A stretch of DNA of 64,000 bases, from positions 113,117 through 177,116 of the forward strand of contig JAUSIS010000013.1 of assembly GCA_030647355.1 (NCBI GenBank), written 5' to 3'. The translations under genes and the position numbers were made by a program. The stretch comes from a bacterium. GTDB taxonomy: Bacteria; Patescibacteriota; UBA1384; VFKW01. This document shows, one piece after another, positions 9,628 through 57,038 of the stretch (its first letter is position 1; each line of letters opens with the position of its first letter). Under the pieces are notes generated by a model that saw nothing but the letters and a program-made list of their open reading frames with translations, did no database searches and was not told the DNA's origin.

Positions 9628-10127
9628 GTAGTTGTAGCTCGAGGGAGTATCGTGAAAATAGCTTGTGCAAAACCTGGTTGGCCGATAGGCGGTAGATACG
9701 GGTAGAACTTCACCCGATCCTTTACATCCGGGTGGCAAAGCATACCCTTGATGATTATAAATCCACGATGGCCTTCTTCGGATGTTTGCAGTGGCTTGTA
9801 GCGCGGTCTGCAACCAATACAGCAGCTATTTACTATTATCACTACGAAACGTCCATCGGCCACACCATGCGCTACGTACGCAATCCCTCGACTGTCATTG
9901 TGCTTCAGGGTATTGGCCAGAGCGTCCCCAATCGGCTCCCGGATATTCTGCCATACTGGATCGTCGTCGTTGTTACCCAGAAAACTGAAGAGCGCTTCAC
10001 AGACTGACAAACGCGCCCGACTAGCGCTCCTCTGGGTCGTGACATCCATGTCCAGATAATCCAGACCGATAGGCTCCCTGTCCAATACCTTAGCTACGAG
10101 TCTCTCAAGCGCTGCGCTTTTTGCCAT
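9624..10127 (-). CDS. Hypothetical protein (GC-rich cassette)
   Basis: 167-aa ORF with visibly higher GC than the flanks. Flanked by the hairpin terminator at 9606-9627. No recognisable motif. Confidence 0.35.
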   Translation of the reverse strand: MAKSAALERLVAKVLDREPIGLDYLDMDVTTQRSASRARLSVCEALFSFLGNNDDDPVWQNIREPIGDALANTLKHNDSRGIAYVAHGVADGRFVVIIVNSCCIGCRPRYKPLQTSEEGHRGFIIIKGMLCHPDVKDRVKFYPYLPPIGQPGFAQAIFTILPRATTT

Positions 10128-10253
10128 AATACTCCTCCGTGAAGTTCTTCCCGCAGTGCCCCCGCTTGTAATCCAACTAGCAGCCAGTTTAATTCATATA
10201 TAGCACTAGAACGAATCCTCGTCAAATTGTCAATATTCTAGTATAATCATCTC

Positions 10254-10988
10254 ATGCAGAAAGAAAAATTGACCGACTATTTAAATATCGCTATATCAGA
10301 AATAAACGACGGAAACATGTCATACGTCTGGGGCAACCACCAAGAAGTTCTAGAAAACCGTACAAAATTCTTAGAAAAATCTGGCTTCGATACCAACAAT
10401 TGCGCTGTCATGAGCGTAACACATGGCACAGATATATTGATCGCCGACCAATCATATCGAGGCAAAGGAATGTTTGACCATTCAACTGCCCTAAAAGTTG
10501 ACGCTTTAATGACTCAAGATCCTAAAATTGTTCTTTGCCTACTGATCGCTGATTGCCTGCCAATCGTTTTTTATGATCCAAAAAAAAATATCTTAGCCCT
10601 CGCCCACATGGGTTGGAAAAGCACTAATGAAAAACTTGCCATGAAACTGATCACACTAATGAAACAAAAATTCGGCAGTAATCCAAAGGATATTGTTGTA
10701 TCCATCGGTCCTGGAATACACAAAAAATCTTCTATCTTCCCAAGTCCCGTTCTTCAAGAAAAAACGCTCAATTGGCAGCCTTATTTAAAAAATTTACCGA
10801 ACAACCAAACGTCAGTTGACAATCTCGGATATAACTATCAACAGCTTCTTGATTCGGGTATTATTGCAAAAAATATTGAAATTAACCCAATAGACACAGC
10901 CCAATCGCCGGATTACTTTTCTCACTATCGCTCCGTTCGGACCGGCGAGTCTGAAGGTAGATTCATGGTCGCCGTTCGCTTAAAATAA
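10254..10988 (+). CDS. pgeF: PgeF/YfiH family (Cu-oxidase_4/DUF152) purine nucleoside-processing enzyme
   Basis: HGTDIL...IADCLPIVFYD...ALAHMGWKS motifs of the YfiH family. AT-rich native composition. Confidence 0.7.
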   Translation: MQKEKLTDYLNIAISEINDGNMSYVWGNHQEVLENRTKFLEKSGFDTNNCAVMSVTHGTDILIADQSYRGKGMFDHSTALKVDALMTQDPKIVLCLLIADCLPIVFYDPKKNILALAHMGWKSTNEKLAMKLITLMKQKFGSNPKDIVVSIGPGIHKKSSIFPSPVLQEKTLNWQPYLKNLPNNQTSVDNLGYNYQQLLDSGIIAKNIEINPIDTAQSPDYFSHYRSVRTGESEGRFMVAVRLK

Positions 10989-11169
10989 CAAATCAACGAA
11001 ACTCTCTATGGCATAATTTTCATAGGATAAAATGACAAGCCTGTTTTACATCACTGGAAATTTTTGTATAATCCAGATACGATACAAACCAGCGGGAGGA
11101 AAGTCGTTGAGACATGCAGGAAGACAGACAAGACGGTCAACTTTGCCCTTCAAACAACAAGTCGCCGTA

Positions 11170-11571
11170 ATGTTGCGCACAAGATTCTACATTGGCATGC
11201 TTGTCGCCGGAGAAACCACCGGCACATGGGATGATCCGCTTTTTCAAGCGCCAGATCTCATCCCGCCAATCTCACTTGACGACGAAGAAATCAACATGGT
11301 TGCATTGATGCAAACTGATGATTTCTTGCTGGCAGCCATGGACTACTTGCAAAACGGACTACCGGAAGAGCTTATCGAGAATGGCCTGGACGCATTGGAA
11401 GCGTGGCTTGGATTGGGCATTTTGCGTCTGCAAGTCGGCTTAGCCATTACGGCAGAAGAAATCAGCGAAATCCCGGCAAGTATGTGGGAACTCAACAGAG
11501 ATAAGCTCTGGATAAAGTTCAGAGACGACTACTATTTCTGGAGTGAGCTTTATTTCCCCAAAAGCACCTAA
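11170..11571 (+). CDS. Hypothetical acidic protein (GC-rich cassette); start uncertain
   Basis: ORF in a GC-rich segment downstream of a TTTACA-N16-TATAAT promoter (~11055-11083). Followed by hairpin terminator GGGAAGC...GCTTCCC+T-run at ~11583-11610. Confidence 0.35.
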   Translation: MLRTRFYIGMLVAGETTGTWDDPLFQAPDLIPPISLDDEEINMVALMQTDDFLLAAMDYLQNGLPEELIENGLDALEAWLGLGILRLQVGLAITAEEISEIPASMWELNRDKLWIKFRDDYYFWSELYFPKST

Positions 11572-11655
11572 CTGCACAATGGGAAGCGACAAGCTTCCCT
11601 CTTTTTGTAAACAAAAAAACCCGACGCAATCGTCGGGATATAAGATATAAAATGG

Positions 11656-12273
11656 CTAGCCGCCCGCCGCCGCCTCCTCGGGAGTCACCACATGAATACT
11701 GAATTGACAGTCCAGTGCTGTCTCAAGCCCGAGACGTACCTGGCGAACTTGTTCGCCAGACTCCCCGATCAGCTCGCCGCACTTTGAGATGTAGCGAAAT
11801 CGTAGCAGTCTGCCGGCTTGCATCACTCGAATACCATCCAGATCAGCATTCAAATCCAGCTCACCAATGTCATAGTTGGCATATATCTTGAATAGCTTGC
11901 GAGTCAGCTCATGCGCTTCAGCTCCCCGCGCTTCTCCGCGGTGCCGGGTTCCAATACTCCAAAGCAAGATATATTGACAGGGAGTAACATCCCCCATCCG
12001 CGTTATTAGCTCCAACCACTCATGGGTAACTGGTTTCTCACGATCGAGAAAATAATAATGCCTGCCTGGACGGCCGGTAGCATTGCCATTCTCATAACCT
12101 GAACAGGTGTACCAGAGAACAGTAGTCAAAAGACTATTCTGATACTCCCTATGCGACAGAACAAAGTACGACCGATCCGGGACATAAATCAACCTGATCG
12201 CCTCCCCCAATGTTAATATCAACATACTAAGTCCAAAATTAATTTTCGTCAAATCTGCAAAACAACCGACCAC
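11656..12273 (-). CDS. Hypothetical protein (GC-rich cassette); start uncertain
   Basis: 205-aa ORF. Terminator hairpin CCCGACGATTGCGTCGGG+T-run on the minus strand at ~11615-11645. Confidence 0.35.
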   Translation of the reverse strand: MVGCFADLTKINFGLSMLILTLGEAIRLIYVPDRSYFVLSHREYQNSLLTTVLWYTCSGYENGNATGRPGRHYYFLDREKPVTHEWLELITRMGDVTPCQYILLWSIGTRHRGEARGAEAHELTRKLFKIYANYDIGELDLNADLDGIRVMQAGRLLRFRYISKCGELIGESGEQVRQVRLGLETALDCQFSIHVVTPEEAAAGG

Positions 12274-12487
12274 CCAAGGGCTCTCTTTGCCCCCTTTATT
12301 CAGAGATTAAGACCTTGACAATTCTTTTTGGTATCTCTATAATACGGACACAGTCCGCCAATTGGCTAAATTGTACCTGATCTTTATAAAAGATCATGCC
12401 TGCCAAATAGCACTTTGCGCATTTACCAAGTACTCAAAGCGCTGTTTGGCAAACCCAATCAGCTGTTCCCGGAGTTAGAGGAATGAA

Positions 12488-13045
12488 ATGGTACAAACGG
12501 TGGACAATCCTGTTCGAGTCACCAAAGTGGACCCTCTTGTCCACGCCGTCAATGCGCTCGCGAAGTTATTCGGAGCGCCGTCGTTTCCGGAGGAAAACCT
12601 TGCGGGGTTGACCCTGCAAGGACTTTATAGCAAGATGCTAGCCAGTCAGAGACGAACAAGAAGGCATGTCAGTTGGTGCCTTTCTGGCACAAAGGGTTTC
12701 TACTTCATCGTCAAAGGACATGGCGGGGAAACCGTCGTCCGAATTCATCCGGGGATAAAGACTGGTGATGTAGAGCTGAATGCCAGGTTGAAAAACACCA
12801 AACAAACTGGCCTCGCCCTTGAAGCCCGCTGGGCCTTGGACTATGGTTATGTAATCAGTGCCAAGACCCGAGACGAGAACAGCTTTGATGCTGATTCTCT
12901 CGACTACCAAAAGAATGTCCTTTGTGACATCTTAGGGAGAATCAGCATCATGGCACGTGCCTTAGAAACTGATGAGCCGGAAACCCAGGTAATCCGCCGA
13001 TTCATCGGGGCTCCTGCCTATAAGGCACTGCAACTCGCCGCCTAA
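12488..13045 (+). CDS. Hypothetical protein (GC-rich cassette)
   Basis: 185-aa ORF. Upstream TTGACA-N17-TATAAT promoter at ~12318-12346. Leader contains the palindrome GATCTTTATAAAAGATC. Hairpin terminator CCCAGGA...TCCTGGG+T7 at ~13066-13105. Confidence 0.45.
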   Translation: MVQTVDNPVRVTKVDPLVHAVNALAKLFGAPSFPEENLAGLTLQGLYSKMLASQRRTRRHVSWCLSGTKGFYFIVKGHGGETVVRIHPGIKTGDVELNARLKNTKQTGLALEARWALDYGYVISAKTRDENSFDADSLDYQKNVLCDILGRISIMARALETDEPETQVIRRFIGAPAYKALQLAA

Positions 13046-13215
13046 ACCGCCAGTTATCTGGCATCCGAACCTCACCCAGGATGAAATCAAATTCTCCTGG
13101 GTTTTTTTATACCCATAATCTCAAAAGTCAGTCGAATGCTAGGCTCGCTTGTTTGACGTAAAGACAACTTTATGGTTTACTAAAGCCACTGTTGGTTTTT
13201 TAGGGGGACTGATAA

Positions 13216-13680
13216 ATGAGAATGTTCGCATTGTCAGAAGATCTTCGGTTACAGAGCACTAAGCAAGGCGATGACTTCGTGGTTCGCTTCCCGCTAGGAA
13301 GAAATGGCATTCCTGGCGTTGCACTTTACAACGCTGGGAGAAACAACACAGCCGAAGCACCCGTCGTCAATCTTCCAAGCGACCAGGCACTCATTCTGGC
13401 ACACCGGATCACGGCTCGCTGTCGTGATCATGTCTTTTCGAAAGTCACCGAGGTCAAATCTCTCGGAGACGACTGCTATTACCATATCATACTCAAGTGC
13501 GGCTTCACCTACAGGTTCACGAATGACGCCGATTTCCGGCGGAATATCAAACCGGAAGTCGGGGACATGATCCTCATCCACTTCAACGCCCGCAGAGGCA
13601 AACACTTGGTCATAAAGTCCAGCGGGCAAAGATCGTTTCCGGCCTGCGAGATCACCGACGATGACATCATCGCCGAATAG
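13216..13680 (+). CDS. Hypothetical protein (GC-rich cassette)
   Basis: 154-aa ORF with a GGGGGA RBS. Hairpin terminator GGGGAAC...GTTCCCC+T-run at ~13700-13730. Confidence 0.45.
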   Translation: MRMFALSEDLRLQSTKQGDDFVVRFPLGRNGIPGVALYNAGRNNTAEAPVVNLPSDQALILAHRITARCRDHVFSKVTEVKSLGDDCYYHIILKCGFTYRFTNDADFRRNIKPEVGDMILIHFNARRGKHLVIKSSGQRSFPACEITDDDIIAE

Positions 13681-13934
13681 CCAATCCACACTATTCACGG
13701 GGAACACTACACGTTCCCCTATTTTTAATAAAAAAGACGGAATCCGTGTCCTCTTAAGAAACCAAGATCGCTGCCTCGCCACCGTTTGACAAAAACCTAT
13801 TTTTATGCTAATATATAACATCAAGACAAACCTCGTAATATCTTCCTTCAACCTATGGACAGCGCCTTGCGTACAAAAACAGTATTCAGAGCGCTGTTCA
13901 TAGCATCATATCACTTCGAAGGAGGATCCGTTTC

Positions 13935-14471
13935 ATGGAAAAAATCATCGTTATGGCATTAAGCGCGGTGAAAGTGCTGTTTGGCAAGGTGATTCTCTCT
14001 TGCCAAACAGCCGAGACACTTCAGGAGATCCAGGAAGTTATATCACAATGTCCTGACTGGAGAAAGTCCCTCGACAAGGTCAGCTTCTCCGAGAAGACTG
14101 GCTTATCGCTCTGCCGCCTGATCCACGGAGGTGCCTTATACCTCCAGCTGCGAAACCCCGTCGGACTGGTTAACTCGATCAGGATCGGAGTAATCGTAGC
14201 AGGAGACTCCGAATTCCAAACACCAACGACCTTGAACTTGCTCTTCTGTCAGTTGAAGGATCGGAAAGAATGGCGATTGGAAAAAGCAAGATGTGATCTT
14301 GCGGGAGTCATCGAGCCCGAGCCCATTCTGCGGCTTACGGAGCTACTTGGCCCAAATGGGCTTCCCGAACTAGGAGAAACCCTCAACCAGGCACCAATCG
14401 AACAAACCCGGGAAATCAGGGAGTTTCTGGACTCCTGGGTCCAGCAGCAGGTAACGACCGCAACCGCCTAG
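13935..14471 (+). CDS. Hypothetical protein, paralog A of a tandem pair (178 aa)
   Basis: Shares the block TGLSLCRLIHGGALYLQLRN with TLCQAVIGGALCLRFQE of the downstream 178-aa ORF. Upstream motif GCGCTGTTCATAG is shared with the paralog. GAAGGAGGA RBS. Confidence 0.5.
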   Translation: MEKIIVMALSAVKVLFGKVILSCQTAETLQEIQEVISQCPDWRKSLDKVSFSEKTGLSLCRLIHGGALYLQLRNPVGLVNSIRIGVIVAGDSEFQTPTTLNLLFCQLKDRKEWRLEKARCDLAGVIEPEPILRLTELLGPNGLPELGETLNQAPIEQTREIREFLDSWVQQQVTTATA

Positions 14472-14728
14472 CGACACCAACGCACACCAGAAACATCCTC
14501 ACCCTACAAAACCTCATTCCCCCGAGGCAAGACAAAGCACCACGCTTTTCACCTCGGGGCTTTGTTATTTATAGGCATTTTATAATTTTTAATTGACAAA
14601 ACTCAACAAATATGTGATTTTCAGATTAATATATTGTTCCTTTCAACCCCTCCTAGTGCTTATGGGCAGCACTTTGGATACCTAACTCAAGTATAAAAGG
14701 CATCCGAGGCGCTGTTCATAGACTACAT

Positions 14729-15265
14729 ATGGAGGACATAATGAATATTGTGCAAATGGCTCTTGTAGCGCTACGTGAACTGTTCGAAACTACAATGTCG
14801 GAAGAGTTCCCTGACCTGGGAAGCATCGCTTCCGAGCTGGAAAACATACGGCTTGGCAAATTCAAGTATTCCTACGACAACAACGGATTAACGCTCTGTC
14901 AAGCGGTAATCGGTGGCGCACTCTGCCTTCGTTTTCAAGAATCATCTCGGAGTAACACAGGCAAAGATCGGCTCACAGTCTGGCTCATCGGCGTGAGCTC
15001 CCTGAAGTGCAGCCAACTCACTCTTAGCCTCGGGTACAACCTAATAGGAATTGGGGTAGCGGAACTAGGTGCTATCAACTGCTCTTGGAGCACATCAGAT
15101 GTAGTTGCAAGCGGCGAGCCGATCAGTGCTTTCTTAAGACTGCTCCGGTTAGACGACTACAAAATGCTGGAAAGCGCCCTGAAAGCCAAGGAGGGTTTGG
15201 ATGACGTGCGCTACCTGAAGTACCTTCTCGATCTCTGGCGCCAGCGTTACCCAGAAAGCAAGTGA
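14729..15265 (+). CDS. Hypothetical protein, paralog B of a tandem pair (178 aa)
   Basis: Same length and conserved central block as 13935-14471. Upstream GCGCTGTTCATAG motif. Followed 12 nt later by a small Zn-ribbon ORF. Confidence 0.5.
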   Translation: MEDIMNIVQMALVALRELFETTMSEEFPDLGSIASELENIRLGKFKYSYDNNGLTLCQAVIGGALCLRFQESSRSNTGKDRLTVWLIGVSSLKCSQLTLSLGYNLIGIGVAELGAINCSWSTSDVVASGEPISAFLRLLRLDDYKMLESALKAKEGLDDVRYLKYLLDLWRQRYPESK

Positions 15266-18975: not shown

Positions 18976-19088
18976 CACATGTTGGTTGCACCTCTGGAAT
19001 CTTCCTTGATTGGCTGCGCTTTGGATATTGTTCAAATCAGTATTCAAACCGTTGCCAACCACCAACGAAAAAATAGGAGGATTACCGT

Positions 19089-19661
19089 TTGAATGCACGC
19101 CAACGAATGATCTGTTTTGTCCAAGGGATAGTTGCCGGACTCTGGAACAACCCGAAGTTCGAAACCGCTATCCTACCTGAGGCAACCGGGCTGAAACGGC
19201 TCGAGAATAGTTTCAGCCAGTACCCGGCACCCGCGGAACCGAACCGTATCATAACGGAGTACGGGCATGATGTCTTGAGTATTGGCTACATGACACTCGG
19301 CGGGCTGTTGACTTTCAACTGCTACCCCTACTCTTACATCATGTGTTGCATCAGGACTACCGTCGGACCTGACAGCCTGGAACAACTCTTCTCTCTCGGT
19401 TGGAACCTCAAAACCGACCAGATGGATAGGGTTGGAACGCCTAACTCAAATATCCTGTATCAAGGACTAAACGGCGCTTTCCTGGATCGGCTCAACGAAC
19501 AACTCGATGTTCTTGGACGGATACTGGCCGGCAGGTATCCCGGTGCTGACATCTATGGCTATTACACCGACCAGCTCAAGCAAATGCTGATGGCGGACGA
19601 GAGTCCTAGTGCGGTATTGTTCCGCGATCTACTCCTTGAATGCGGCTCGATCAGAGCCTAA
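19089..19661 (+). CDS. Hypothetical protein (GC-rich cassette)
   Basis: 190-aa ORF with a GGAGGA RBS. Own promoter at 18947-18975 and terminator at ~19674-19700. Confidence 0.45.
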   Translation: MNARQRMICFVQGIVAGLWNNPKFETAILPEATGLKRLENSFSQYPAPAEPNRIITEYGHDVLSIGYMTLGGLLTFNCYPYSYIMCCIRTTVGPDSLEQLFSLGWNLKTDQMDRVGTPNSNILYQGLNGAFLDRLNEQLDVLGRILAGRYPGADIYGYYTDQLKQMLMADESPSAVLFRDLLLECGSIRA

Positions 19662-19761
19662 CGATCCCCTACCAACGCCCCTTCGGGGGTTCTTTTTTTA
19701 TTTCCATGCGTTTGGGTTGACCTTGATAATCGCTCAGCTTATACTCAAGCAAAGGAGCATT

Positions 19762-20370
19762 ATGCAAAAAAGTCCAGAGACATTTACGGAATTAGACCAC
19801 GACGAAGTGCAACGAAAAAGAGATATTGCCGAAATCGAACATTTTAAATTTAAGGGTGCCTGGAAAAGAATAGGCGCCGATTGCTCTGGAGATTCCAGAG
19901 GAGCATGCGCACGAAGCAATAGTGGCAAATGTGGTGTCTACCATAACTGTGAAGCTGCCTCGGCAGCAATGGGGCCCGAGGAAATATGCCCAGCTCACAC
20001 ATCCGAAGAAGATGCTCATAAAGAAGCGGAAGCTATTTACGAAAAAGTTAGTCAACTGGCAAAATTCCATGATATTAGCGATAAGTCCTTTGAATTAAAA
20101 CATGAAATTATCGCTACTAACGGTGATAAAGTTCAACCGAAATATATACTTGATAAAACAGACGAAAGATCAACTGAAGATTTAGCTTGGTATGATCCTG
20201 AGGACATTAAAACTAGTCTAATACTCAAAACAAACTTCCAAAAAGATAGTGATCGGGAAGGGAATGATAATTCTTCTTTCGAGCTTCCTCCGTCTCCTAC
20301 CCCGGAACAGCTAGGAATACTAAAAGAATTCTGCGAAATTCATGGATTATTTAGATCCGAACAACAATAG
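19762..20370 (+). CDS. Hypothetical acidic protein with Cys-rich segment
   Basis: Start at MQKSPETF after an AAAGGAG RBS. Promoter TTGACC-N17-TATACT at 19716-19745. Confidence 0.4.
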   Translation: MQKSPETFTELDHDEVQRKRDIAEIEHFKFKGAWKRIGADCSGDSRGACARSNSGKCGVYHNCEAASAAMGPEEICPAHTSEEDAHKEAEAIYEKVSQLAKFHDISDKSFELKHEIIATNGDKVQPKYILDKTDERSTEDLAWYDPEDIKTSLILKTNFQKDSDREGNDNSSFELPPSPTPEQLGILKEFCEIHGLFRSEQQ

Positions 20371-20450
20371 AGAAACTATATTACTCGAAAAAGCCCGCTT
20401 GACCAGTTACCGACGGGGTGTATAATCCAGACAAAGAAAAGAAAGCTTGA

Positions 20451-21335
20451 ATGAATAACCTTAGAGATAAACCACTTTTTATAGTCACCCTTTTAGCAGC
20501 ACTACTAGCTTTTTGTATATTCAAGAATGAGCTAAGTCAAAAAACAATTTTCTTGGGAATTGCACATACGAACTTATTACAGTTGATTCTCATATTTGCC
20601 ATTCTCCTTTCGCTATCAGCATATTTATACGCATTAGATTTCGTTAGATATGGCACCAGTTTCGAGAATAACATCATCTTGAGACGTTTTATCCTCGTCG
20701 GACACTTTTTTTATATCTTAGCAGTTTTCTTTCCTATAATTATTGGGTTAGTTTGGCTCATAGTCTGGTTATTAAATATTATCTTAGCAAACGTAATTGT
20801 TAATCAGATAGTTACAGTAGTAGTTCTTAGTCTGTCATTTTTCATAAGTAGTTACTTTGCAGACAAAATGAAAAGAAGCCAGAGGAATCAGTTGGCAGAA
20901 AAAATACAAGAGAAAACCGAAGAAAATATGGAAAGAGCATTTGAGCTATATACACAAAAATTTTACCCATCTTTCATTTTAGAAAGCTATAACACCGCTC
21001 TTTCCTTGATTCGAACTACGCTTGAATCAAAAGGCTATAGCACTATTAATCTGCCTGCTACAACGCTCCTGCTGCTCGCCAAGAAAGAAAAGGTTATTTC
21101 ACCATCAGCGCAGGAAAAATTAAATAAACTAAAGATTCTTAGAAATAAAGCAGCCCACATGAATATTACTTTGAGTAAAGCAGATGCTGATTTTGCTAAG
21201 GAAATAGTCAAAAGCATATCAAAACAATTAGATTTCCATCAGTTACTCGAGAAGGAAACGGAAGAAGACCAGCAGAAGTTTAACAAACAAATTAAAACAA
21301 TACAAAATTATATAAAAAAAATTAGAAATAAATAA
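20451..21335 (+). CDS. Membrane-anchored protein with C-terminal HEPN-like (Rx4H, DUF4145-like) domain
   Basis: About four N-terminal TM helices. C-terminal LNKLKILRNKAAHMN carries an Rx4H HEPN motif in a helical context. Very AT-rich. Confidence 0.45.
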   Translation: MNNLRDKPLFIVTLLAALLAFCIFKNELSQKTIFLGIAHTNLLQLILIFAILLSLSAYLYALDFVRYGTSFENNIILRRFILVGHFFYILAVFFPIIIGLVWLIVWLLNIILANVIVNQIVTVVVLSLSFFISSYFADKMKRSQRNQLAEKIQEKTEENMERAFELYTQKFYPSFILESYNTALSLIRTTLESKGYSTINLPATTLLLLAKKEKVISPSAQEKLNKLKILRNKAAHMNITLSKADADFAKEIVKSISKQLDFHQLLEKETEEDQQKFNKQIKTIQNYIKKIRNK

Positions 21336-21399
21336 ATGATTCTCTTTTGCAGGAAGACGAAATAAGCTAACGCTTCTAAACTCTAATTAAAAAGAATAG

Positions 21400-21665
21400 C
21401 TCCCGCTTCATCGCTCCTTTGTTTCTTTGAAAAGGAGAAGTCAATTACGCTCCCAAAGAAGCCTCGGCCACAGGATGGAATCCTAGTGGAACGCTGGGAG
21501 TGTCTTTGAGGAAGTAATTTATTTTCGACGCTTCCCAAGAAGTCGTGCAGGGGTATGGGATTGTAAGGGACATAGGGGGCGGCATCGAAACGAGCCCCCT
21601 TACCCCTTACATACCCTGGCGCTGTCAGCGCCAAAAACCCAGGCATGTCCCATGCCCTCAAACAA
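21400..21665. ncRNA. GC-rich structured intergenic element (candidate small RNA; strand and class unknown)
   Basis: GC-rich island between two AT-rich genes. Nested hairpins CCTGGCGCTGTCAGCGCCAAAAACCCAGG and GGGGGCGGCATCGAAACGAGCCCCC. The 99-aa minus-strand ORF across it looks spurious. Confidence 0.3.
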
Positions 21666-21719
21666 TCTATGCTATAATACAAATAGTAAACTCACTCAAA
21701 AAATAAAAAAGGAGAGGAA

Positions 21720-22439
21720 ATGTTGGAGCTCAAAGATGTAACTAAAAAATTCGGCCCCATAACCGCCGTAGATAATTTATCTTTTGAAATAAACGAAGGC
21801 GAAATAGTCGGCCTCATCGGCCCAAACGGCTCCGGCAAAACCACCGCCCTCAAAATGATTGCCGGCCTCTACCGCCCAACTTCCGGCAAAATAACCATCA
21901 AAAACCACGATGTCGCCAAAGACGCCGAAGAAACTCGCGCTCTTCTCGGCTACATTCCGGATGAACCGGCTGTCTACAGCAAACTGACCGGCGACGAATT
22001 CCTCAATTTTGTCGGAGAAACATTTGGCATCCCCGCCGACAAACGCCAAAGCGCCATTGCCGAACTCCACAAACAATTCCCAATGGAAGAACAAACCGGC
22101 GGCTATTTTGAAGATTATTCCCGCGGCACCCGCCAAAAATTTATGATCATGGCCGCCTTACTTCACAAATCGCCTTTGCTTTTGATTGACGAGCCGATAG
22201 TCGGCCTCGACCCCTCGAGCGCCCACACCGCCACTCGCCTCTTCTCCGAATATGCCAAAGAAGACAAAAGAGCCATTCTCGTCTCCACCCATTCTCTGGC
22301 AGTCGCCCAAGAACTCTGCGACCGCTTCATCGTCTTATCAAAAGGCAAAATGGTTGCCCAAGGGTCGCTGAGCGAACTGCGCAAAGACGCCCAAACCGAC
22401 GGCTCTTTAGAGCAAATCTATCTCAAACTGGCAGAATAA
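21720..22439 (+). CDS. ABC transporter ATP-binding protein
   Basis: Walker A GPNGSGKTT, signature region, Walker B LLLIDEP, and an H-loop. Confidence 0.85.
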   Translation: MLELKDVTKKFGPITAVDNLSFEINEGEIVGLIGPNGSGKTTALKMIAGLYRPTSGKITIKNHDVAKDAEETRALLGYIPDEPAVYSKLTGDEFLNFVGETFGIPADKRQSAIAELHKQFPMEEQTGGYFEDYSRGTRQKFMIMAALLHKSPLLLIDEPIVGLDPSSAHTATRLFSEYAKEDKRAILVSTHSLAVAQELCDRFIVLSKGKMVAQGSLSELRKDAQTDGSLEQIYLKLAE

Positions 22440-22441
22440 TC

Positions 22442-24082
22442 ATGAACACATTATCACTTTTCAACATAATCAACCGCGGCAATTCCTATTGGCGAGGCAA
22501 AAACAAGGCCTTTCCCGTTATTGTCTCCGCTTTTATCGTCCTTATCTTAGGGATTGCCTTCGGCGAATATTACGGCTTCCGATATATCCTGCATACTCTC
22601 GAAGAAGATCCTTTCTTCAAAAACATCATCATTTCCTTTAGCTTCCACGCTATCTTCGCCATTCTCTTTTCCTTGATTGTCGCCAGCGCCCTTATCATAA
22701 GCCCGATATTATTTTTGAAAAACCGCTATGATAATTTTCTATTATCCTTGCCAATTAAAACCCATACCATTTTCTCCGCCCGTTTCATTACCCAGCTAAT
22801 TCTTCTCGGCTGGACAGCCATTATCTTCGGCATGCCGATAATTCTCGCCATCGGCATCAACACCCACGCTTCATTTTCGTTTTACCTGATCGCTGTCATT
22901 TATTTAGCCCTGCTTATCGTCTTAGCCGGAGCTATCAGCAATGCCCTATTGCTTTTGATAATCGCCGTCACCAAAAACAAAATCCCCCGCCTTACCACCC
23001 TGATTAGCTTGGCGGGCGCCGCCCTTTTCTTCTATGCCTTAGTGCGCACTGTCACCCCCCACAACCTCGTGCCATTGCTCCTGCCCGACAACCAAAGCCA
23101 CGTCACTGCCCTTGTAAACATCACCACACAATTTCGCTATTGGCCTTCCACTTGGTATGCCGATTCTGTCTTGCCGCTCGTCAACGGCACTGCGCTTTCG
23201 ACAATTAACTTTCTAATTCTGCCCCTGGTAACCATTGCCGTTTTTCTAATTCAATATCTTCTGGCAGTCAAATTCTACCGCTCGGCACTCCAAGAAACCC
23301 AAGAAAGCCGCGAGAAAAAACCCAAAAAGAACAGTTTTCTAATCAAACTATCCGGCGCCCCAATGCTTTTAGTACGCCAATGGGCGCAAGTCGCCCGCAC
23401 CCGAAACGACATTAACCAACTTTTCCTGTTTATCCTACTCTTTCTTATGTATCTCGGCTTTATCGCCAATTCTCCCAATCTCGGCAGCACACCGGATCCG
23501 GTTTGGACGCCACGCATAATATTTTTCCTCCTGCTTGTGGTCGTCTATTTCATTATCTTAATGGCACTGCGCTTTGCTTTTCCCTTTGCCAGCTTGTCAG
23601 CCAATCTCTCGTGGTTCAATCTATCTCTGCCCCGCTTTCGCGCCCGCTCCTATTCCAGCCATATCATGGCCACATTCCTGCCCATCGCCATAATCCTCGA
23701 GGTAATTATTTTCTTTACCTCCCGCATCATGCAATTCTCCGCGTCTTTTACCACTCCCATGCTGATTATTACTCCTATTTTATGTTTAACCATTATTACC
23801 CTCATCACTGCCGTCGGTTCGGTCTTCCCCGCCTCCCACAACATCAATCCGGAAACTATGAGCACCACTCCCTCCGGTTTACTGGCTCTGGTCGTCGCCA
23901 ACATTTACGCCCTGCTTGCCATCGCCGCTCTCTGGAAAGAAGCATCCAATGCTATAACCGGCGGTCACATTGGTATAAATATCGGCTCTCTTTATTTAAT
24001 CGCTTTATTGAGTTCACTTCTTCTCACTATAATCTTTTGGCGCATCGGCCAGTCGGCCTTCCGCCACCTTCGCCTGGCATAG
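22442..24082 (+). CDS. ABC-2 type transporter permease (multi-TM)
   Basis: 546-aa highly hydrophobic protein immediately downstream of the ATPase, with start overlapping the ATPase stop. Confidence 0.6.
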   Translation: MNTLSLFNIINRGNSYWRGKNKAFPVIVSAFIVLILGIAFGEYYGFRYILHTLEEDPFFKNIIISFSFHAIFAILFSLIVASALIISPILFLKNRYDNFLLSLPIKTHTIFSARFITQLILLGWTAIIFGMPIILAIGINTHASFSFYLIAVIYLALLIVLAGAISNALLLLIIAVTKNKIPRLTTLISLAGAALFFYALVRTVTPHNLVPLLLPDNQSHVTALVNITTQFRYWPSTWYADSVLPLVNGTALSTINFLILPLVTIAVFLIQYLLAVKFYRSALQETQESREKKPKKNSFLIKLSGAPMLLVRQWAQVARTRNDINQLFLFILLFLMYLGFIANSPNLGSTPDPVWTPRIIFFLLLVVVYFIILMALRFAFPFASLSANLSWFNLSLPRFRARSYSSHIMATFLPIAIILEVIIFFTSRIMQFSASFTTPMLIITPILCLTIITLITAVGSVFPASHNINPETMSTTPSGLLALVVANIYALLAIAALWKEASNAITGGHIGINIGSLYLIALLSSLLLTIIFWRIGQSAFRHLRLA

Positions 24083-24084
24083 AA

Positions 24085-24843
24085 TTATTGCACTTGCGAT
24101 ACTTTCCAAAGCTGCTGGAACCAGTTGCGCATGGCAGTCGCGTTTTCCCTGGAAGTAATCACCACACCAAAATTTTCTTTTATTGAGGTCAAAATTGCTA
24201 CATTATCGCCATAAATATAATAATGCGCCGGACACTCAAAACCAACTGGCCCTATTCGCCTCTTTCTCAAGCCTTCCTTCGGATCAAAAAATGAATCAAT
24301 CTTGCCTCTAACCCATACCGAGCGCGTCCAAATCCCCTTCTTTACCTTTCGAGCCACCCAATCAATAAAAAAATTCTTATCCAAAATATCAGTCAATTTG
24401 TTAGTTTCTCCGACATAATAAATCTCATCAACTGGCGTCTCAAGAATCTCCTCGTAAATCGCCTTAATCTCCTCACCTCGGAAAAACCGGACCCTTGGCT
24501 GAAACGGCGAAAACTCGTATAACCGGTTGAATTCCGGCAGAAATTTCTCCAAATTCTCCGCCTGTTCCTGCAATTTCTCCTGCTTGCCTCGAATCAGCGT
24601 CATAATCTTACGAGGCGGATAAGGTATATAAATCCGACGTGTTGCCGTCTGCGTAATCTCAATTAATCCCCTATCTCTTAAGTTTTCTAATTCATGAAAA
24701 ACCGTCGTCCTCGGCAAACCAGTCTTTTCTTTAATTGACACTATACTCGATTCACCAAGTTCAAGACAAGCCAAATAAACTTCAATCTCTTTTTCACTTA
24801 AATCCAATTGTTTTAAAAAATCATCGAATTGCATACTGTCCAC
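24085..24843 (-). CDS. TrmB family transcriptional regulator
   Basis: N-terminal HTH LSEKEIEVYLACLELGESSIVSIKEKTGLPRTTVFHELENLRDRGLI typical of TrmB. C-terminal sensor domain. Confidence 0.7.
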   Translation of the reverse strand: MDSMQFDDFLKQLDLSEKEIEVYLACLELGESSIVSIKEKTGLPRTTVFHELENLRDRGLIEITQTATRRIYIPYPPRKIMTLIRGKQEKLQEQAENLEKFLPEFNRLYEFSPFQPRVRFFRGEEIKAIYEEILETPVDEIYYVGETNKLTDILDKNFFIDWVARKVKKGIWTRSVWVRGKIDSFFDPKEGLRKRRIGPVGFECPAHYYIYGDNVAILTSIKENFGVVITSRENATAMRNWFQQLWKVSQVQ

Positions 24844-36722: not shown

Positions 36723-39700
36723 CTATTCCTCCGCCGGCACTTCCACCACCGACGTGATCGTACCCGTCGGTAGGTAAGACACGATAAACGCCCGGGAAAT
36801 CCCTCCGTAGTAACCAGTAACTTTCATTTTATTCAATGACTGGGTGTAGGCAATAAGGTTAAGGTAAAAAACCGCATTCCGCACATAGTCTAAAGTCCCT
36901 GGATGATATTGTCGTATAAATTGCTGTGTTGCTAAGTTATTGGGAGTTGCATACCAAACAGTCCATGGAGGTGACGGGGGCTTGTAATAGTGGAATTCTT
37001 GTTCCCAATATTTATTAAACGGGCTGGCAAGGTCGTCTATATCTATTGTAATCTCAACTAAATCATCGATTAGCGCATTTCCAAATCCCCTCTTAATTGC
37101 CAGCCCATTGAGCCATTCTTTCCAATAATCACCGTCTCCCCAAGTACTTGAATCATCAGGATCGTATCCCGGCGGTACGCCTTTGGAGAAAGCACTATTC
37201 ATCAAATCTAAATATTCGATCTGGCTGGATAGGCCGGATGCGCCAGCCAACGAACGGGATGAAATAAACAGAAATCCTCCTTTATCATCCACGCTGGCTA
37301 CCGCCATATTGGCCAGATCGCAAACCTGCCGGGCATTCCCGTCATGGTCTGTTCTGGTTTCGACCTTTTCATTATCCTCATTGTAGTAAGGAAGCTTTCT
37401 TAGCTTCCATCCCGGCTTACTTTGACATGGATAAGTTGCCAGTACATCAAATTTTAGTCCTAAATCGGTAATAGCATAAGCATTTAGACCGTAACCCATA
37501 TAACCACCCGTAACATATCCGGGTTCGCCTATCTTTAACACATCCCTCAATCGGGCGCTATTTAAACGAAAAATTGGATACAAACCGTTCCGGTCATAAA
37601 GACTGGCAAAAATCGGATGAGAAAATTCTACTGATGATCCATCTGTATTGCCCGGACTATTAGACCAGACGTCAAAGCCGTATTCGTTTGGAGGTGGGCT
37701 TCCTATCGGGGGTATATCCGCCAAATCTACTTTGGGATTCTGATCGGACCGTTCATAAGCATAACTGTAATCACCGCTATAAAAAAGCAGATTACCGGCG
37801 GTCTGATCGATGCTAATCGACTGGCTGCCGCTTGTAGAAATCGGCCGGTCTAACCCAAGTTTATCGTCAGGATTATTTTTGAAAAGTTCCCAAGTCTGCT
37901 GGGTTCCGTCAGTTTTAGCGTTAAGTTTCCATAAGAAATTCTTATTCGAAAGACTCGCCCCCGAGGAGCTTCCTCCCCACAGGTAAAGAAAATCTTCTCC
38001 TGCTATAGAGGCATAGTTTAAAGATCCGGCAGTTCTCGTCCTTGGCTTCTTGCTTGGATCAGTATCAACTTTCGGATCAGAATCTACTTTGACATATCTC
38101 CAGTCAACTCTCCAGTTATCAGGTAGTCCGGCTAATTGAGAAACTTCACCTACCCACGAAATAAATGATTGATCCGAAGTGTCTGTATTCAAAACAAACA
38201 TCTTATTACTGCCATTAGAAGTAAACAGATCGCCAGACGTCAAACTATAGGAGGGTTGATACCGCAGTAGTATCCTATGATCATTGTCAGCAATACTCTC
38301 AATATTATCAACAGTCGCAATAAACAGCTTGTTATTTCCGCTGATAATCGGCCCTAATGTTATCTGCTTGCCAGCATACAAACCCCTTGCTTGAGAATCG
38401 TCAAGCTGTAAAGTTGCAGGAGCATCGGTAATCAAGTCTTTAGTGATTGATGTGCTTAAAACCTCGCTGTTATAACTGCCTAAATTTACACTAAACATGG
38501 TTAATCCGTTATTTGCCAAAACCTCGCTGGTTCCACCAAGTATTAAATTATTTTCAAACTCAATTTTTTGACATCCTCGAGATCCAGGCGGATTAGTCGA
38601 AAAACAGCTAGCATCATAAAATATTTTTTTAACAGTACCCTTCATTCTCTGATTTTGCGTTCCTTGATCATCAACCGGACCAACAAGGTACTCCATTCCC
38701 AACGCAATCCCCCTTATGGTGCCTTGAGCTACTTTCAATACTTTAACTGTATCGTTCGGCACGGAGTTATTCATCCTCCCTTCGGGCACTAAAACAGCCT
38801 CATTCTGAATACTGCCTCCCAAGTGGTACATATTAAAATTAACGTTGCTGGATACGCCCTTGGGTTTCAGAAAATGCCAGGTCGGGCTCGCAGTAGTTAC
38901 GCCGGTTAATCTCCATGATGGCTTTTGAATTTTCATGTGGCTGTATCCGCCGAATACATACAAAGTATCCTCGGAAAAAACATAATAGCCCTGCGGATTA
39001 GACATATAATTCGGGCCCTCATAGAGCTGCCTGATGGATTTAACGGGTTGACCGGCTATCACCCCGACTTCGCTAACCCTCCCCCAGTAAACCTCATCAT
39101 AACTATCGGTTTGCTCTAAGTTTGGACTGTTTCCATAATAAGTGGCGACATCTCCCGGCGCCAAGCACCTGTTGCCATTACCCAAAGGATTAGCGCTATT
39201 CGTCATCTCGTCGCAACCCGGAGTTACGGTTGTTGCATTCGATAATTGAAGGGTTAATCTCCTTGTATCCGCAACTGACTCTGTATTCCTGCCCGCCAAT
39301 GGCTGGTCAAAGTGCAATTGATATCTGTAGGTTCCAAATCCAACGTCAGTACCGTCTGGAAACCTGGTAATTTTCGAAATCTTCCCCTTTAAATCAACAT
39401 ATTCAGTATCCCCGCCCGAACCATCTTTGGGCCCGTAAACTCGTATAATATCTCCCACCGTTAATCCGTCCGGATATACCTCATCGCCCACAGCGCCATG
39501 AGGAGCATATACGCTCGAGCGCATACTTAAAGTCACTTCATGTATTTCATTAGCTGGCAGCGTCGTTTTGGGCGTGATATTCGGCTCAATCCAATAATCG
39601 GTCGTTGGATTTACGGCCGAAGAACTGTTGATTGATTTATGCGAAAACACTTCTTGGAGGTAATCTCCGTCAGCTAGTACATCTATAACCGGACGGTCTA

Positions 39701-42113
39701 TAACCAGATTCCACTGGGGACTGGCAATAGTCGGATCGATTCTCCAGACATCCGCTGTGCTTCCGATGCTTGTCATGCCTGAATCCCCTACATTTCCAAG
39801 GTTGCCGCCTGCAACTACCAAATTCTTATTGTCTCTGCTGTAACTAACCAGCGCCTCGCTTCTTGGCAACGGACGGTTAATATTTGTGTTAGCAGGCTTA
39901 ATCAGTTTCCATGTTTGAGGTATGCCTCCGCTCAAACTTAGCTCCCAAAGATCATTCTTCTTATTCACGCCCATATTGAATATTATTGCTGTAAGCGGGT
40001 TATCATCCGAATCATCTGCCGGACGTAGATCCCTGTTTAGATATGTTTCATTAGCTGCCATATTGCCGTTTAGCGCGCGATTAGAAATATCTTTGCCGCC
40101 ATACAAGTACGCTATGTTCTCTGACTCGTCATAAACCATTCCGTGTCCTGACCTGGGAGTCGGGCCGAAATTTAAATCCACATGCATAGTCCCCGCTGCC
40201 CCCGGACCATAATCAATGCTGTTTACTCTGCCCCACAATGGCTCCAGATTGATATCGTCTGGCTCTAGCTGAACTATTGAACCGATCGTATAACCGCTTA
40301 TATTAGCAACCGGAACGGGTTGGTTCGCTCCTGGCAAAATCTCTACCGCAGTCCCTCCGCTCCAAATACTTTTTATTTTACTGATGTCATAGTTCCCGTT
40401 TAAATCGTATTTATTATATTCTTTTTGACCGGTAATAGTTTTAGGAAGTACATATACAGAATAGCCGTGACTCTGAAAATATTCATCATACTGAAAATTC
40501 ACAAAATTGACTCCATATCCGAAATTCATCCTATCGCCTTCCAGCGTCCCGCCAAAATCAAACTTATCAGGAATGAATATCAACGGCTTGGTTGTCAATC
40601 CGGTTCCGTCAATTATATGGATAATATCTGCCTTACCGCATACTTCGCGTGCTCCTCCGTTGTGAACTGGTTGAGAGAAATAGAGCGAATCCGGATCCAC
40701 CGTGAAAAAATTTCCGGCCGTATCGATGCTCGTAATAACCCCATCAACTGTAATGTTGAAATTATAAAAATTGCTCTTCCAATATTCCTGTCCGGTCGTA
40801 TACAGCGGATCAGGCCAAGGGTGACTATCCAATTGCAAATAATAATTATACTTAGCCATGACCTTGAGAAATGCCACTCTATCGCCAATTCCGAAAGACG
40901 ATGCTTGTCCGTATTTTAAGTAAACTTTGGTGTCCGGACCCATAAACGCCGTATCCAAAGATTTTGCGATGTTAACATCGTAAGCCAGTTCGCTTGCCGG
41001 AAAAGTCAGAACGGTTGGGGTTGTTTTCTTATAAAGCTGCCGTACATAATAATCCCCGCTAATTTTTTGAGTACTCCCGTTAGCGACAACAGATGCTTTC
41101 TCCCAATTAATTACATTCGAGGGAGTATTATCCGACGGATTGTAGGCATTCTTCATTACCCATAAATCATTACGCTTTCCTCCAGACAAATTCAGCTCGT
41201 CATTGATGATAGCTTTAGTATTGGGATCCATATTCTTTTCAATCGGTCCCCACTTAAATTGATAATTAGTGTCACCAATAAAAGGAGGGTTGATAATACC
41301 TTCGGTCGGATTAGGTAAATCGCTGTTGGCATCTATCATCAGCTTTCCCCCGACGCGATCCACATTCCCTGTTATCCAGTCTTCCAAATTAGTTCTCTCT
41401 TGGCCATCGAGTACCAGACTGTCTTCCGGCAAAGATAAAATCAAAAGATCGTATTTCAAATAGCCCGGATTACTGAACAGACCGGAATATTTCACCCCGC
41501 CAGTATTAGTCACGCCAACATTCCCTTGATCCAGCGGTCCGCCCATTAAAACCTGCCAGTATTCAATCTTGTTTTTCGCATAAACCTTGCCTGTAGAAGG
41601 GTCAATCGGTGCAAGGGGATTCACAAAATCCTTAAATCCGTTATCTTTCAATATAGTACTGCTAGACATTGCCGATCCAATCGTAGTAAAGATATCATTG
41701 GGCTGGACGTAACTTCCTGCAGCTGCATCCCACGCTGAAATTACTGCGACATTGGTGCACCTGGAAATTGTTTTTATTTTTTCTTCCGGAGTAAACGAGT
41801 AATATTTGATATATGGCGCTTTCTTGGAATCTGTTGAAGCTTGGTTTCCAGTGTCAAAGTTTATTAGCATTGTCTGATCAAAAGACGGGTCACCGGCCAA
41901 TTTTTTGCTTAAATCAGAAACTCCTGCCAGCGCCGCTTCCCTCGCCACTCTCGCGTCATTATAAGAAGCCGCATTGCCGATTATGGAGTAACTGTTTATC
42001 GCCGCTCCTAAGGTCGCCGCCGTCATCAAAGTAACAATAAGCAAAGTAAGAACCAATACAGTCCCCTGCTTTTTGAGACCTGTACAATTAAATTTTATTT
42101 TGCCTAAAGCCAT
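36723..42113 (-). CDS. Giant (1796 aa) T4P-associated surface protein: PilX_N-like N-terminal prepilin-type helix plus Kelch/beta-propeller-like repeats (PilY1-like tip adhesin candidate)
   Basis: N-terminus KKQGTVLVLTLLIVTLMTAATLGAAINS resembles the PilX_N hydrophobic helix. Multiple Kelch-like segments (for example SGHGMVYDESENIAYLYGGKD). Last gene of the minus-strand prepilin/pilC cluster. Confidence 0.65.
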   Translation of the reverse strand: MALGKIKFNCTGLKKQGTVLVLTLLIVTLMTAATLGAAINSYSIIGNAASYNDARVAREAALAGVSDLSKKLAGDPSFDQTMLINFDTGNQASTDSKKAPYIKYYSFTPEEKIKTISRCTNVAVISAWDAAAGSYVQPNDIFTTIGSAMSSSTILKDNGFKDFVNPLAPIDPSTGKVYAKNKIEYWQVLMGGPLDQGNVGVTNTGGVKYSGLFSNPGYLKYDLLILSLPEDSLVLDGQERTNLEDWITGNVDRVGGKLMIDANSDLPNPTEGIINPPFIGDTNYQFKWGPIEKNMDPNTKAIINDELNLSGGKRNDLWVMKNAYNPSDNTPSNVINWEKASVVANGSTQKISGDYYVRQLYKKTTPTVLTFPASELAYDVNIAKSLDTAFMGPDTKVYLKYGQASSFGIGDRVAFLKVMAKYNYYLQLDSHPWPDPLYTTGQEYWKSNFYNFNITVDGVITSIDTAGNFFTVDPDSLYFSQPVHNGGAREVCGKADIIHIIDGTGLTTKPLIFIPDKFDFGGTLEGDRMNFGYGVNFVNFQYDEYFQSHGYSVYVLPKTITGQKEYNKYDLNGNYDISKIKSIWSGGTAVEILPGANQPVPVANISGYTIGSIVQLEPDDINLEPLWGRVNSIDYGPGAAGTMHVDLNFGPTPRSGHGMVYDESENIAYLYGGKDISNRALNGNMAANETYLNRDLRPADDSDDNPLTAIIFNMGVNKKNDLWELSLSGGIPQTWKLIKPANTNINRPLPRSEALVSYSRDNKNLVVAGGNLGNVGDSGMTSIGSTADVWRIDPTIASPQWNLVIDRPVIDVLADGDYLQEVFSHKSINSSSAVNPTTDYWIEPNITPKTTLPANEIHEVTLSMRSSVYAPHGAVGDEVYPDGLTVGDIIRVYGPKDGSGGDTEYVDLKGKISKITRFPDGTDVGFGTYRYQLHFDQPLAGRNTESVADTRRLTLQLSNATTVTPGCDEMTNSANPLGNGNRCLAPGDVATYYGNSPNLEQTDSYDEVYWGRVSEVGVIAGQPVKSIRQLYEGPNYMSNPQGYYVFSEDTLYVFGGYSHMKIQKPSWRLTGVTTASPTWHFLKPKGVSSNVNFNMYHLGGSIQNEAVLVPEGRMNNSVPNDTVKVLKVAQGTIRGIALGMEYLVGPVDDQGTQNQRMKGTVKKIFYDASCFSTNPPGSRGCQKIEFENNLILGGTSEVLANNGLTMFSVNLGSYNSEVLSTSITKDLITDAPATLQLDDSQARGLYAGKQITLGPIISGNNKLFIATVDNIESIADNDHRILLRYQPSYSLTSGDLFTSNGSNKMFVLNTDTSDQSFISWVGEVSQLAGLPDNWRVDWRYVKVDSDPKVDTDPSKKPRTRTAGSLNYASIAGEDFLYLWGGSSSGASLSNKNFLWKLNAKTDGTQQTWELFKNNPDDKLGLDRPISTSGSQSISIDQTAGNLLFYSGDYSYAYERSDQNPKVDLADIPPIGSPPPNEYGFDVWSNSPGNTDGSSVEFSHPIFASLYDRNGLYPIFRLNSARLRDVLKIGEPGYVTGGYMGYGLNAYAITDLGLKFDVLATYPCQSKPGWKLRKLPYYNEDNEKVETRTDHDGNARQVCDLANMAVASVDDKGGFLFISSRSLAGASGLSSQIEYLDLMNSAFSKGVPPGYDPDDSSTWGDGDYWKEWLNGLAIKRGFGNALIDDLVEITIDIDDLASPFNKYWEQEFHYYKPPSPPWTVWYATPNNLATQQFIRQYHPGTLDYVRNAVFYLNLIAYTQSLNKMKVTGYYGGISRAFIVSYLPTGTITSVVEVPAEE

Positions 42114-57031: not shown

Positions 57032-57038
57032 TAGTTCA

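Follow-up and report, generated by a model that had tools for sequence, protein, structure and literature searches.

A bacterial protein family with four predicted transmembrane helices and a C-terminal HEPN domain, candidates for membrane-tethered ribonucleases

Many immune and toxin systems, among them Cas13, Csm6, RNase L, HepT and the Abi proteins, use a HEPN ribonuclease as effector, and for each of them the central question is what holds the enzyme inactive and what activates it. HEPN proteins tethered to the membrane were predicted in 2013; to our knowledge, none of those characterised so far has a canonical active site, and the only case studied, Csx28, proved to be a pore rather than a nuclease. 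Likewise, we know of no experimental study of any of the three membrane-associated groups set out at that time. These comprise (i) proteins with a single 'WP' transmembrane (TM) segment and a DUF4145-like HEPN domain, (ii) proteins with a helical domain, one TM segment and an Abi2/Swt1 HEPN domain, and (iii) proteins with a HEPN domain, two TM segments and a Zn-ribbon (Anantharaman et al. 2013; PMC3710099). Here we analyse a bacterial gene whose 294-residue product joins an N-terminal membrane domain to a C-terminal HEPN domain. The coding sequence of this 4TM-HEPN gene (20451..21335, stop codon included, ATG start) was taken from the list of open reading frames of the window, by which we mean the whole 64-kb stretch of DNA that was analysed; all positions given are those of the window, and the gene, its parts, its promoter-like site and the ORF directly upstream all lie on the forward (+) strand. 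No description of a four-TM HEPN architecture was found in the literature searched, and we propose that these proteins form a fourth membrane-associated HEPN group, previously undescribed, beside the three of 2013.

With the three earlier groups the window protein shares a HEPN domain that is predicted to be cytoplasmic and tethered to the inner membrane, together with the same proposed logic in which a membrane stimulus leads to RNA cleavage. Receiver fusions occur in group (i), and one member of the present family (P0043) has a receiver domain as well. The differences lie in the number of TM helices, four here versus one or two, and in the lack here of a Zn-ribbon and of any extra N-terminal globular domain. 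Where the 'WP' group has W, the residue before the conserved proline of the membrane domain (P95) is F or S in the consensus sequences of the sub-clades, and the signature of the family comprises this proline and Y58 in the motif 'YLYALD'.

The closest described HEPN families are DUF4145 (PF13643) and HEPN-T (PF05168). The likeness extends to the four-helix fold, to the R-N-x3-H motif located where helix 3 ends, to the acid of helix 2 and to the insert that separates this helix from helix 3, and further to the occurrence near restriction-modification (R-M) and other defence genes and to the REase-fold domains to which some members are fused. The window protein nevertheless scores below the gathering thresholds of both families, members are split about evenly between the two models, and the N-terminal four-TM domain lies outside both family definitions. 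We therefore do not assign the family confidently to either, as it sits between the two Pfam models.

Three kinds of described systems offer functional comparisons. Csx28, the accessory protein of type VI-B2 CRISPR systems, also places an N-terminal membrane segment before a cytoplasmic HEPN-type bundle and has a membrane role in defence, as is predicted here; it has one TM segment and a divergent non-catalytic motif, assembles face-to-back into an octameric pore and needs Cas13b, whereas the window protein combines a canonical motif with four TM helices and has no Cas gene associated with it. The HepT toxins (SO_3166, PDB code 5yep; and 7ae9), which are dimeric RNases, were the top matches (E ~0.04) when the family profile was searched against the PDB, and the alignment brings the RNxxH motif into register. 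HepT proteins, in contrast, are soluble, measure about 130 residues, lack a membrane domain and are countered by an adjacent MNT antitoxin via AMPylation, and no MNT gene lies near the members examined. Finally, the single-protein HEPN defence genes (the lactococcal AbiJ, AbiU and AbiV types, Tha, HepS, DS-11 and Ishtar) resemble the present gene in that one gene encodes a variable sensor and a HEPN domain in variable genomic contexts, if the membrane domain here is indeed a sensor; their sensors, however, are soluble (AbiJ-NTD, CBS, β-rich and others). Identity with AbiU, HepT/MNT, Csx28 or a PADLOC system was considered and rejected, as profile cutoffs were not reached, MNT was absent, four TM helices accompany a canonical motif and no system-specific HMM matched. 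The AbiU2, Abi_C and AbiV models gave no match to the family at their cutoffs. The domain logic is familiar, and what is offered here is an experimentally tractable design, in which a predicted canonical HEPN nuclease is built onto a polytopic membrane domain that is itself conserved. With a single gene, about 270 residues and a confidently predicted structure, so compact a system could be used to ask directly whether a membrane domain can gate a HEPN nuclease.

HEPN domains are four-helix bundles in which an insert separates helices 2 and 3, helix 2 bears an acidic residue, and an Rx4-6H motif is found where helix 3 stops and the loop to helix 4 starts, with N, D or H typically following the arginine of the motif (PMC3710099). 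All four features, namely the site of the motif, N after R, the helix-2 acid and the insert, are found in the window protein. The core of the domain comprises residues ~150-262 (20898..21236); in the AlphaFold2 model, helix 1 ends at residue 168 and is followed by helix 2 (172-193), the insert (203-212), helix 3 (218-235) and, from residue 243, helix 4. The motif R231-N-K-A-A-H236, encoded by AGA AAT AAA GCA GCC CAC (21141..21158), sits where helix 3 ends; here the first-pass annotation had read an LRNKAAH signature. Its residues are highly conserved, R231 in 146, N232 in 141 and H236 in 142 of 148 relatives, and RNxxxH is present in 138 of 150 representatives, so that the arginine and histidine on which the annotation relied are kept throughout most of the family. 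The helix-2 acid is E178 (codon GAA, 20982..20984), identified from the alignment of relatives, where the position is E in 117 and D in 5 of 149 sequences. Helix 4 is extended by a charged, coiled-coil-like segment (residues 263-294, 21237..21332; helix 243-293 in the model), which is absent from most relatives as these stop at residues ~260-275.

Profile searches agree with this assignment. Four HEPN-clan models of Pfam point to one and the same region of the window protein, residues 150-258, every one of them below its gathering cutoff: DUF4145 scores 20.4 bits (E = 5.6e-4; cutoff 23.1), HEPN_AbiU2 17.1 (cutoff 26.8), HEPN 16.3 and Swt1-HEPN 13.9. Neither NCBIfam nor PADLOC-DB v2 returned a match for this protein. 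When 79 family members were scanned singly at E ≤ 0.01, DUF4145 matched 55 of them (best 3.1e-8) and PF05168 HEPN 53 (best 5.3e-11), with Swt1-HEPN matching 29 and HepT 10. A HEPN or DUF4145-like domain, as first proposed, is borne out by these matches. The suggested link to AbiU, on the other hand, did not hold, since HEPN_AbiU2 falls well short of its cutoff and matches a single member of the 79, the window protein itself. PADLOC models matched members weakly and only through the HEPN parts of Csx1, Csm6 and CARF-HEPN models, in at most 8 of the 79 (best 3e-5). A search of the PDB with the single window protein returned only spurious coiled-coil matches (Erlin-2), which were discarded. On three independent routes, sequence profiles and conservation among them, the C-terminal domain almost certainly belongs to the HEPN superfamily (Pfam clan CL0291). 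The HEPN domain of the window protein is probably also catalytically competent.

Hydropathy identifies hydrophobic stretches at residues 4-29, 32-66 and 74-138. An AlphaFold2 monomer model built on 79 family sequences (pLDDT 93.1, pTM 0.81) places N-terminal helices at residues 6-22, 42-65, 75-111 and 115-168, and together these data fit four TM helices in the window protein, in agreement with the 4-TM domain first proposed. The predicted membrane domain (residues 1-136, 20451..20858) would consist of TM1 (~6-24), a short β-hairpin (32-41), TM2 (~42-62), TM3 (~77-110) and TM4 (~115-135). By the positive-inside rule, the cluster DKMKRSQR after TM4 suggests that both termini face the cytoplasm and that the C-terminal domain is cytoplasmic. 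Residues 1-136 are covered by no Pfam, NCBIfam or PADLOC model. Within this region, Y58, which belongs to the conserved SAYLYALD motif at the cytoplasmic end of TM2, is kept in 137 of 149 relatives, P95 of TM3 in 141 of 150, and K7 and K25 are also conserved across the family. As Y58, P95 and the architecture are conserved family-wide, the TM domain appears to be under selection and to be more than a simple anchor. TM4 continues into the cytoplasm as a stalk (residues 136-168, 20856..20954) that doubles as HEPN helix 1, and in the model residues 115-168 form one unbroken helix (DSSP H115-168). This stalk may act as a connector that transmits a signal.

To define the extent of the family, we conducted an exhaustive phmmer search of 1.84 billion representative sequences with a threshold of E ≤ 1e-3. 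It returned 237 relatives, 98 of them at E ≤ 1e-10, nearly all full-length and with 20-41% identity. A word-seeded search found no homologue with the window protein alone and only three with the 79-sequence profile, and neither an exact-sequence contig look-up nor a scan of a genome collection with the window protein returned a match. The distribution is rare and patchy: the ten clusters looked up at the 90% level hold one or two members on one to three contigs each. Every member looked up is either unnamed or a 'hypothetical protein', and the ~237 clusters that now carry no better name can be labelled 4TM-HEPN proteins. No family member was found by tblastn in phage and plasmid collections, nor in three scans of viral-contig collections, and the idea of a phage- or plasmid-borne gene was dropped on these grounds.

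About 20 of the 150 representatives are longer, at 380-410 residues. In most of these long variants the C terminus holds a conserved module marked by a D...E-x-K signature ('DFxAEGPxYxYxIEIK'), and the profile of this module found its best PDB match in the Mrr-like AF1548 (PDB code 1y88, E = 0.08), with the D and the ExK aligned. The AlphaFold2 model of one such protein (P0041) shows an α/β tail. REase-fold fusions have already been noted for DUF4145 proteins (PMC3710099). In P0043 the receiver domain takes the position of this C-terminal module, and two further proteins, P0062 and P0066, have lost the RNxxxH motif and kept the TM domain and the C-terminal tail.

The gene itself is AT-rich, as the first-pass annotation had stated, with a GC content of 0.325 (GC3 0.32) versus a window mean of 0.44; the standard deviation across 885-nt windows is 0.056, and 3.8% of such windows are as low as the 4TM-HEPN gene. 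It looks compositionally foreign within the window. At 32.5% GC, the chance probability of an open frame of 885 nt is ~1e-10, as calculated from base frequencies with stop codons at ~7.5% per codon. Directly upstream lies a second AT-rich ORF (19762..20370, 202 aa, GC3 0.30), an orphan that is also called as a gene in an identical contig (L001). It gave no Pfam or PADLOC match and stands beside no other family member in any of the homologue loci compared. The two genes may have been acquired together, and no support was found for a role of the upstream ORF as functional partner of the 4TM-HEPN gene. Together they are a two-gene AT-rich islet, with purD (GC 0.58) and a GC-rich ORF on one side and an ABC transporter on the other; GC values of the flanking genes are 0.577 for purD, 0.52 for the ORF at 19089-19661 and 0.51 for the ABC ATPase. 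The earlier placing of the gene at the edge of an acquired island, as the last element before the backbone resumes, is not supported, as the DNA is GC-rich on both flanks and none of the genes that flank the 4TM-HEPN gene in the window was recognised as one of defence or mobility. The intergenic region downstream of the gene matched no Rfam family or tRNA, and the 64-kb window holds no rRNA or tRNA.

Homologue neighbourhoods were compared for 17 informative loci. No neighbouring gene is conserved, either among ten genome loci or across all loci fetched, and this supports a one-gene module. The candidate partners considered, namely the ORFs upstream in the window, a 274-aa ORF upstream of P0006 and a WYL gene upstream of P0003, were rejected, since none of them is met again at the other loci. 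Defence or mobile-element genes occur close to the family gene, no more than about three genes away (up to five in L027), in 11 of the 17 loci, a frequency that is suggestive only, as 10 of the 17 come from one Bacteroidota/Ignavibacteria sub-clade and the count has no matched background. In L002 the family gene stands between PIN_8 and TIR_2, with Methylase_S, the S subunit of a type I R-M system, further along. In L027/L028, a locus that adjoins dnaA-dnaN, SIR2_2, DUF87 (HerA-like) and N6_N4_Mtase lie on one side and DpnI on the other; SIR2_2 and DUF87 are four to five genes upstream in L027, and the methyltransferase and DpnI are within two. The remaining nine loci of this kind contain HEPN_Swt1 with DUF5343 (L008), AbiH (L015), FRG (L018), Abi_C with HTH and GNAT (L012), RelA_SpoT (L013), HNH (L011), a second DUF4145 gene (L009), a WYL gene overlapping the start of the family gene (L006), and HTH with an integrase (L004). 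Neighbours look like housekeeping genes or are of unknown type in the other six loci (L005, L010, L014, L016, L017 and L019); the homologues at L011, L016 and L017 are from Flavobacterium. L005 is the locus of P0002, the closest full-length homologue, whose gene sits between serS-rpsT-murJ and groEL and overlaps at its start with the stop of murJ.

We propose, with about even confidence, that the family consists of stand-alone, membrane-tethered, metal-independent HEPN endoribonucleases that serve as effectors of a conflict system, in abortive infection, defence or as toxins; RNase activity, dimerisation, activating signal and defence role are all predictions. The protein would reside in the inner membrane, its four TM helices joined via the continuous TM4-stalk helix to a cytoplasmic HEPN domain with the full catalytic-type set of E178, R231, N232 and H236. 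At rest, the membrane domain would keep the HEPN domains from being arranged productively. A cue at or near the membrane, such as phage entry, a phage membrane protein or a disturbance of the envelope or the proton motive force (PMF), might alter the packing of the TM bundle, and the TM4-stalk helix would pass this change on so that two HEPN domains form the face-to-face dimer usual for HEPN RNases, with a composite active site made of two Rx4H motifs. The active dimer could then cut cellular RNA, invader RNA or both at the membrane and arrest growth. Fusions to Mrr-like D..ExK modules, as seen in some members, are typical of conflict systems and support this reading, as does the foreign composition of the gene in the window. 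Points against a role in defence are the window flanks, which hold no recognisable defence gene, the finding of no member on phage, plasmid or viral contigs, and the housekeeping or unknown surroundings of 6 of the 17 loci. The single-gene defence or abortive-infection module of the first-pass annotation fits these observations: its single-gene character agrees with the lack of a conserved neighbour, and the defence or mobile-element genes at the 11 loci suit a defence role, which stays a prediction.

A more specific form of the membrane-tethered effector can be put forward tentatively, as possible rather than likely. Here the protein would be a self-contained membrane sentinel, whose four-helix TM sensor of phage entry or of envelope or PMF disturbance would switch on the attached HEPN RNase through the rigid TM4-stalk. 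If this were true, the sentinel would be a one-polypeptide bacterial counterpart of the Ire1/RNase L type, in which a signal leads to HEPN dimerisation and RNA cleavage, and in its modular variants an Mrr-like DNase or a receiver domain would be attached as well.

Several other explanations have to be weighed against the predicted endoribonuclease effector. It is unlikely, yet conceivable, that the protein is a membrane RNase or RNA-binding protein of housekeeping or stress signalling, a prokaryotic analogue of Ire1 that would process or degrade membrane-proximal RNAs when envelope signals call for it, outside immunity. Stimulus-dependent RNA degradation has been predicted for TM-HEPN proteins (PMC3710099), the receiver domain of P0043 ties the family to two-component signalling, and neighbours resemble housekeeping genes in L005 (murJ/groEL, with the murJ overlap), L019, L010, L016 and L017. 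The rare and patchy distribution, the unconserved synteny and the foreign composition in the window speak against it, however, as do the frequent defence or mobile-element neighbours and the nuclease fusions of some members. Slightly less favoured is an effector of the Csx28 kind, in which the TM domain would kill through a pore or depolarisation and the HEPN-like domain would be a non-cutting module for oligomerisation or for sensing a ligand or RNA. Such an arrangement has a precedent, as a TM segment and a HEPN-type bundle have been reported to form an octameric pore and to cause depolarisation (bioRxiv 10.1101/2021.11.02.466367); in addition, the TM domain of the present family has conserved residues (Y58, P95) and, with four helices, is large, and it persists in P0062 and P0066 despite the loss of RNxxxH. 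The motif of Csx28 is divergent, though, its arginine is turned from the interface and it has one TM segment, whereas the canonical R-N-x3-H and the helix-2 glutamate are kept in ~95% of the present members, which favours catalysis, and neither Cas13 nor any other upstream sensor is a conserved neighbour.

We regard as very improbable a reading in which the HEPN domain would be catalytically inert and would serve only to bind nucleotides or proteins, within a membrane protein whose function is unrelated. Many HEPN domains are indeed non-catalytic, for example those that occur with nucleotidyltransferases and in sacsin, but non-catalytic HEPN domains lack all or part of Rx4-6H (PMC3710099), while R, N, H and the helix-2 acid are retained here at 79-99%. 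Most improbable, in our judgement, is a two-gene toxin-antitoxin system in which the upstream ORF (19762-20370) would be the antitoxin, by analogy with HepT/MNT. That ORF is adjacent, on the same strand and AT-rich like its neighbour, and the closest solved sequence relatives of the family are HepT toxins. It has, however, no match to MNT or any other domain and accompanies no other family member; no MNT or NTP_transf_2 gene was found in the window flanks or among the annotated neighbours, about three genes on each side, of the homologue loci examined; and a promoter-like site of the 4TM-HEPN gene lies between the two ORFs.

This site had been described at the outset as the gene's own promoter. 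It is a σ70-like match (20399..20426) with a -35 element TTGACC (20399-20404), a 16-nt spacer and a -10 element TATAAT (20421-20426), agrees with the consensus at 11 of 12 positions, ends 24 nt upstream of the ATG and is the best match in a 3.5-kb scan (19000-22500). The site is thus present as a consensus match only, in an AT-rich stretch where such matches are common, with 14 found versus 5.4 expected. The Shine-Dalgarno region of the gene is weak (AAAGAAAG). In a public Logan contig with 100% identical DNA, only the last 147 codons are called as a gene (P0001, 147 aa). Since homologues align from residue 3-5 onward, the long ORF of 294 residues, which the first reading had also adopted, is the correct call, and gene callers can be corrected where the AT-rich TM half has been truncated.

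Within the family of homologues of the target protein (294 aa, encoded at 20451-21335 (+), with four TM helices and a C-terminal HEPN domain), a sub-family of ~390-aa members carries an added C-terminal module of ~120 aa, which has an alpha/beta topology and in which a D...E-x-K signature is conserved. This tail is present in P0028, P0041, P0048, P0051, P0056, P0058, P0060, P0067, P0084, P0094 and P0122, and the sub-family is also represented at contig locus L008 (1076-2248). A PDB search with a profile of the tail module returned the Mrr-like protein AF1548 (PDB code 1y88) as its top match (E = 0.08). These features suggest that the sub-family is a 4TM-HEPN-REase triple fusion. The HEPN catalytic-type motif RNxxxH (R231-N-K-A-A-H236 in the target) has been lost in homologues P0062 and P0066, while the D...E-x-K tail is retained. 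A different module is found in the 401-aa homologue P0043, in which a response-regulator receiver domain (Pfam Response_reg, E = 7.6e-30) lies C-terminal to HEPN, and this domain architecture hints at control by phosphorylation in at least one lineage.

On the public contig identical to the window (L001), the annotated family member P0001 spans positions 10001-10444, equivalent to 20892-21335 of the window. The DNA under this call is 100% identical to the window, and the 147-aa product covers the HEPN half only; the gene caller apparently misses the AT-rich TM half of the gene.

Directly upstream of the target lies an orphan ORF of 202 aa (19762-20370 (+)). With a GC3 of 0.30 it is AT-rich like the target, while its surrounding genes are GC-rich, and the two may have been acquired jointly. 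The ORF has no match in Pfam or PADLOC, and no counterpart adjoins any homologue of the target. At another locus, L006, a WYL-domain gene of 115 aa (1237-1584 (+); 27.8 bits against a cutoff of 21.8) has a stop that overlaps the start of homologue P0003. Its product may be a ligand-sensing regulator; no such pairing was seen in the other loci.

Downstream, a gene-free stretch of 385 nt (21336-21719) separates the target from an ABC transporter. It contains a strong, imperfect GC-rich hairpin (21549-21616) with an MFE of -40.9 kcal/mol (z = -3.2), a stability equalled by 0 of 200 shuffles; the hairpin matches no Rfam family. The identical contig L001 stops within this hairpin, at window position 21566.

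Elsewhere in the window, three consecutive ORFs at 56393-58224 (-) are strongly AT-rich (GC 0.28-0.30, GC3 0.20-0.25), as is a 1-kb stretch at about 50000-51000 (GC 0.285); these blocks may represent other acquired genes. Six ORFs of 178-205 aa run along both strands of 11032-15265, none with a Pfam or PADLOC match, and weak paralogy links ORF 13935-14471 to ORF 14729-15265, which share 30% identity across 71 aa (E = 4e-4). A very large ORF of 1796 aa occupies 36723-42113 (-). Directly after the ABC transporter pair (21720-24082), ORF 24085-24843 (-) matches Pfam TrmB and is paralogous to ORF 47646-48422 (-); the two align across 260 aa at 25% identity (E = 2e-18).
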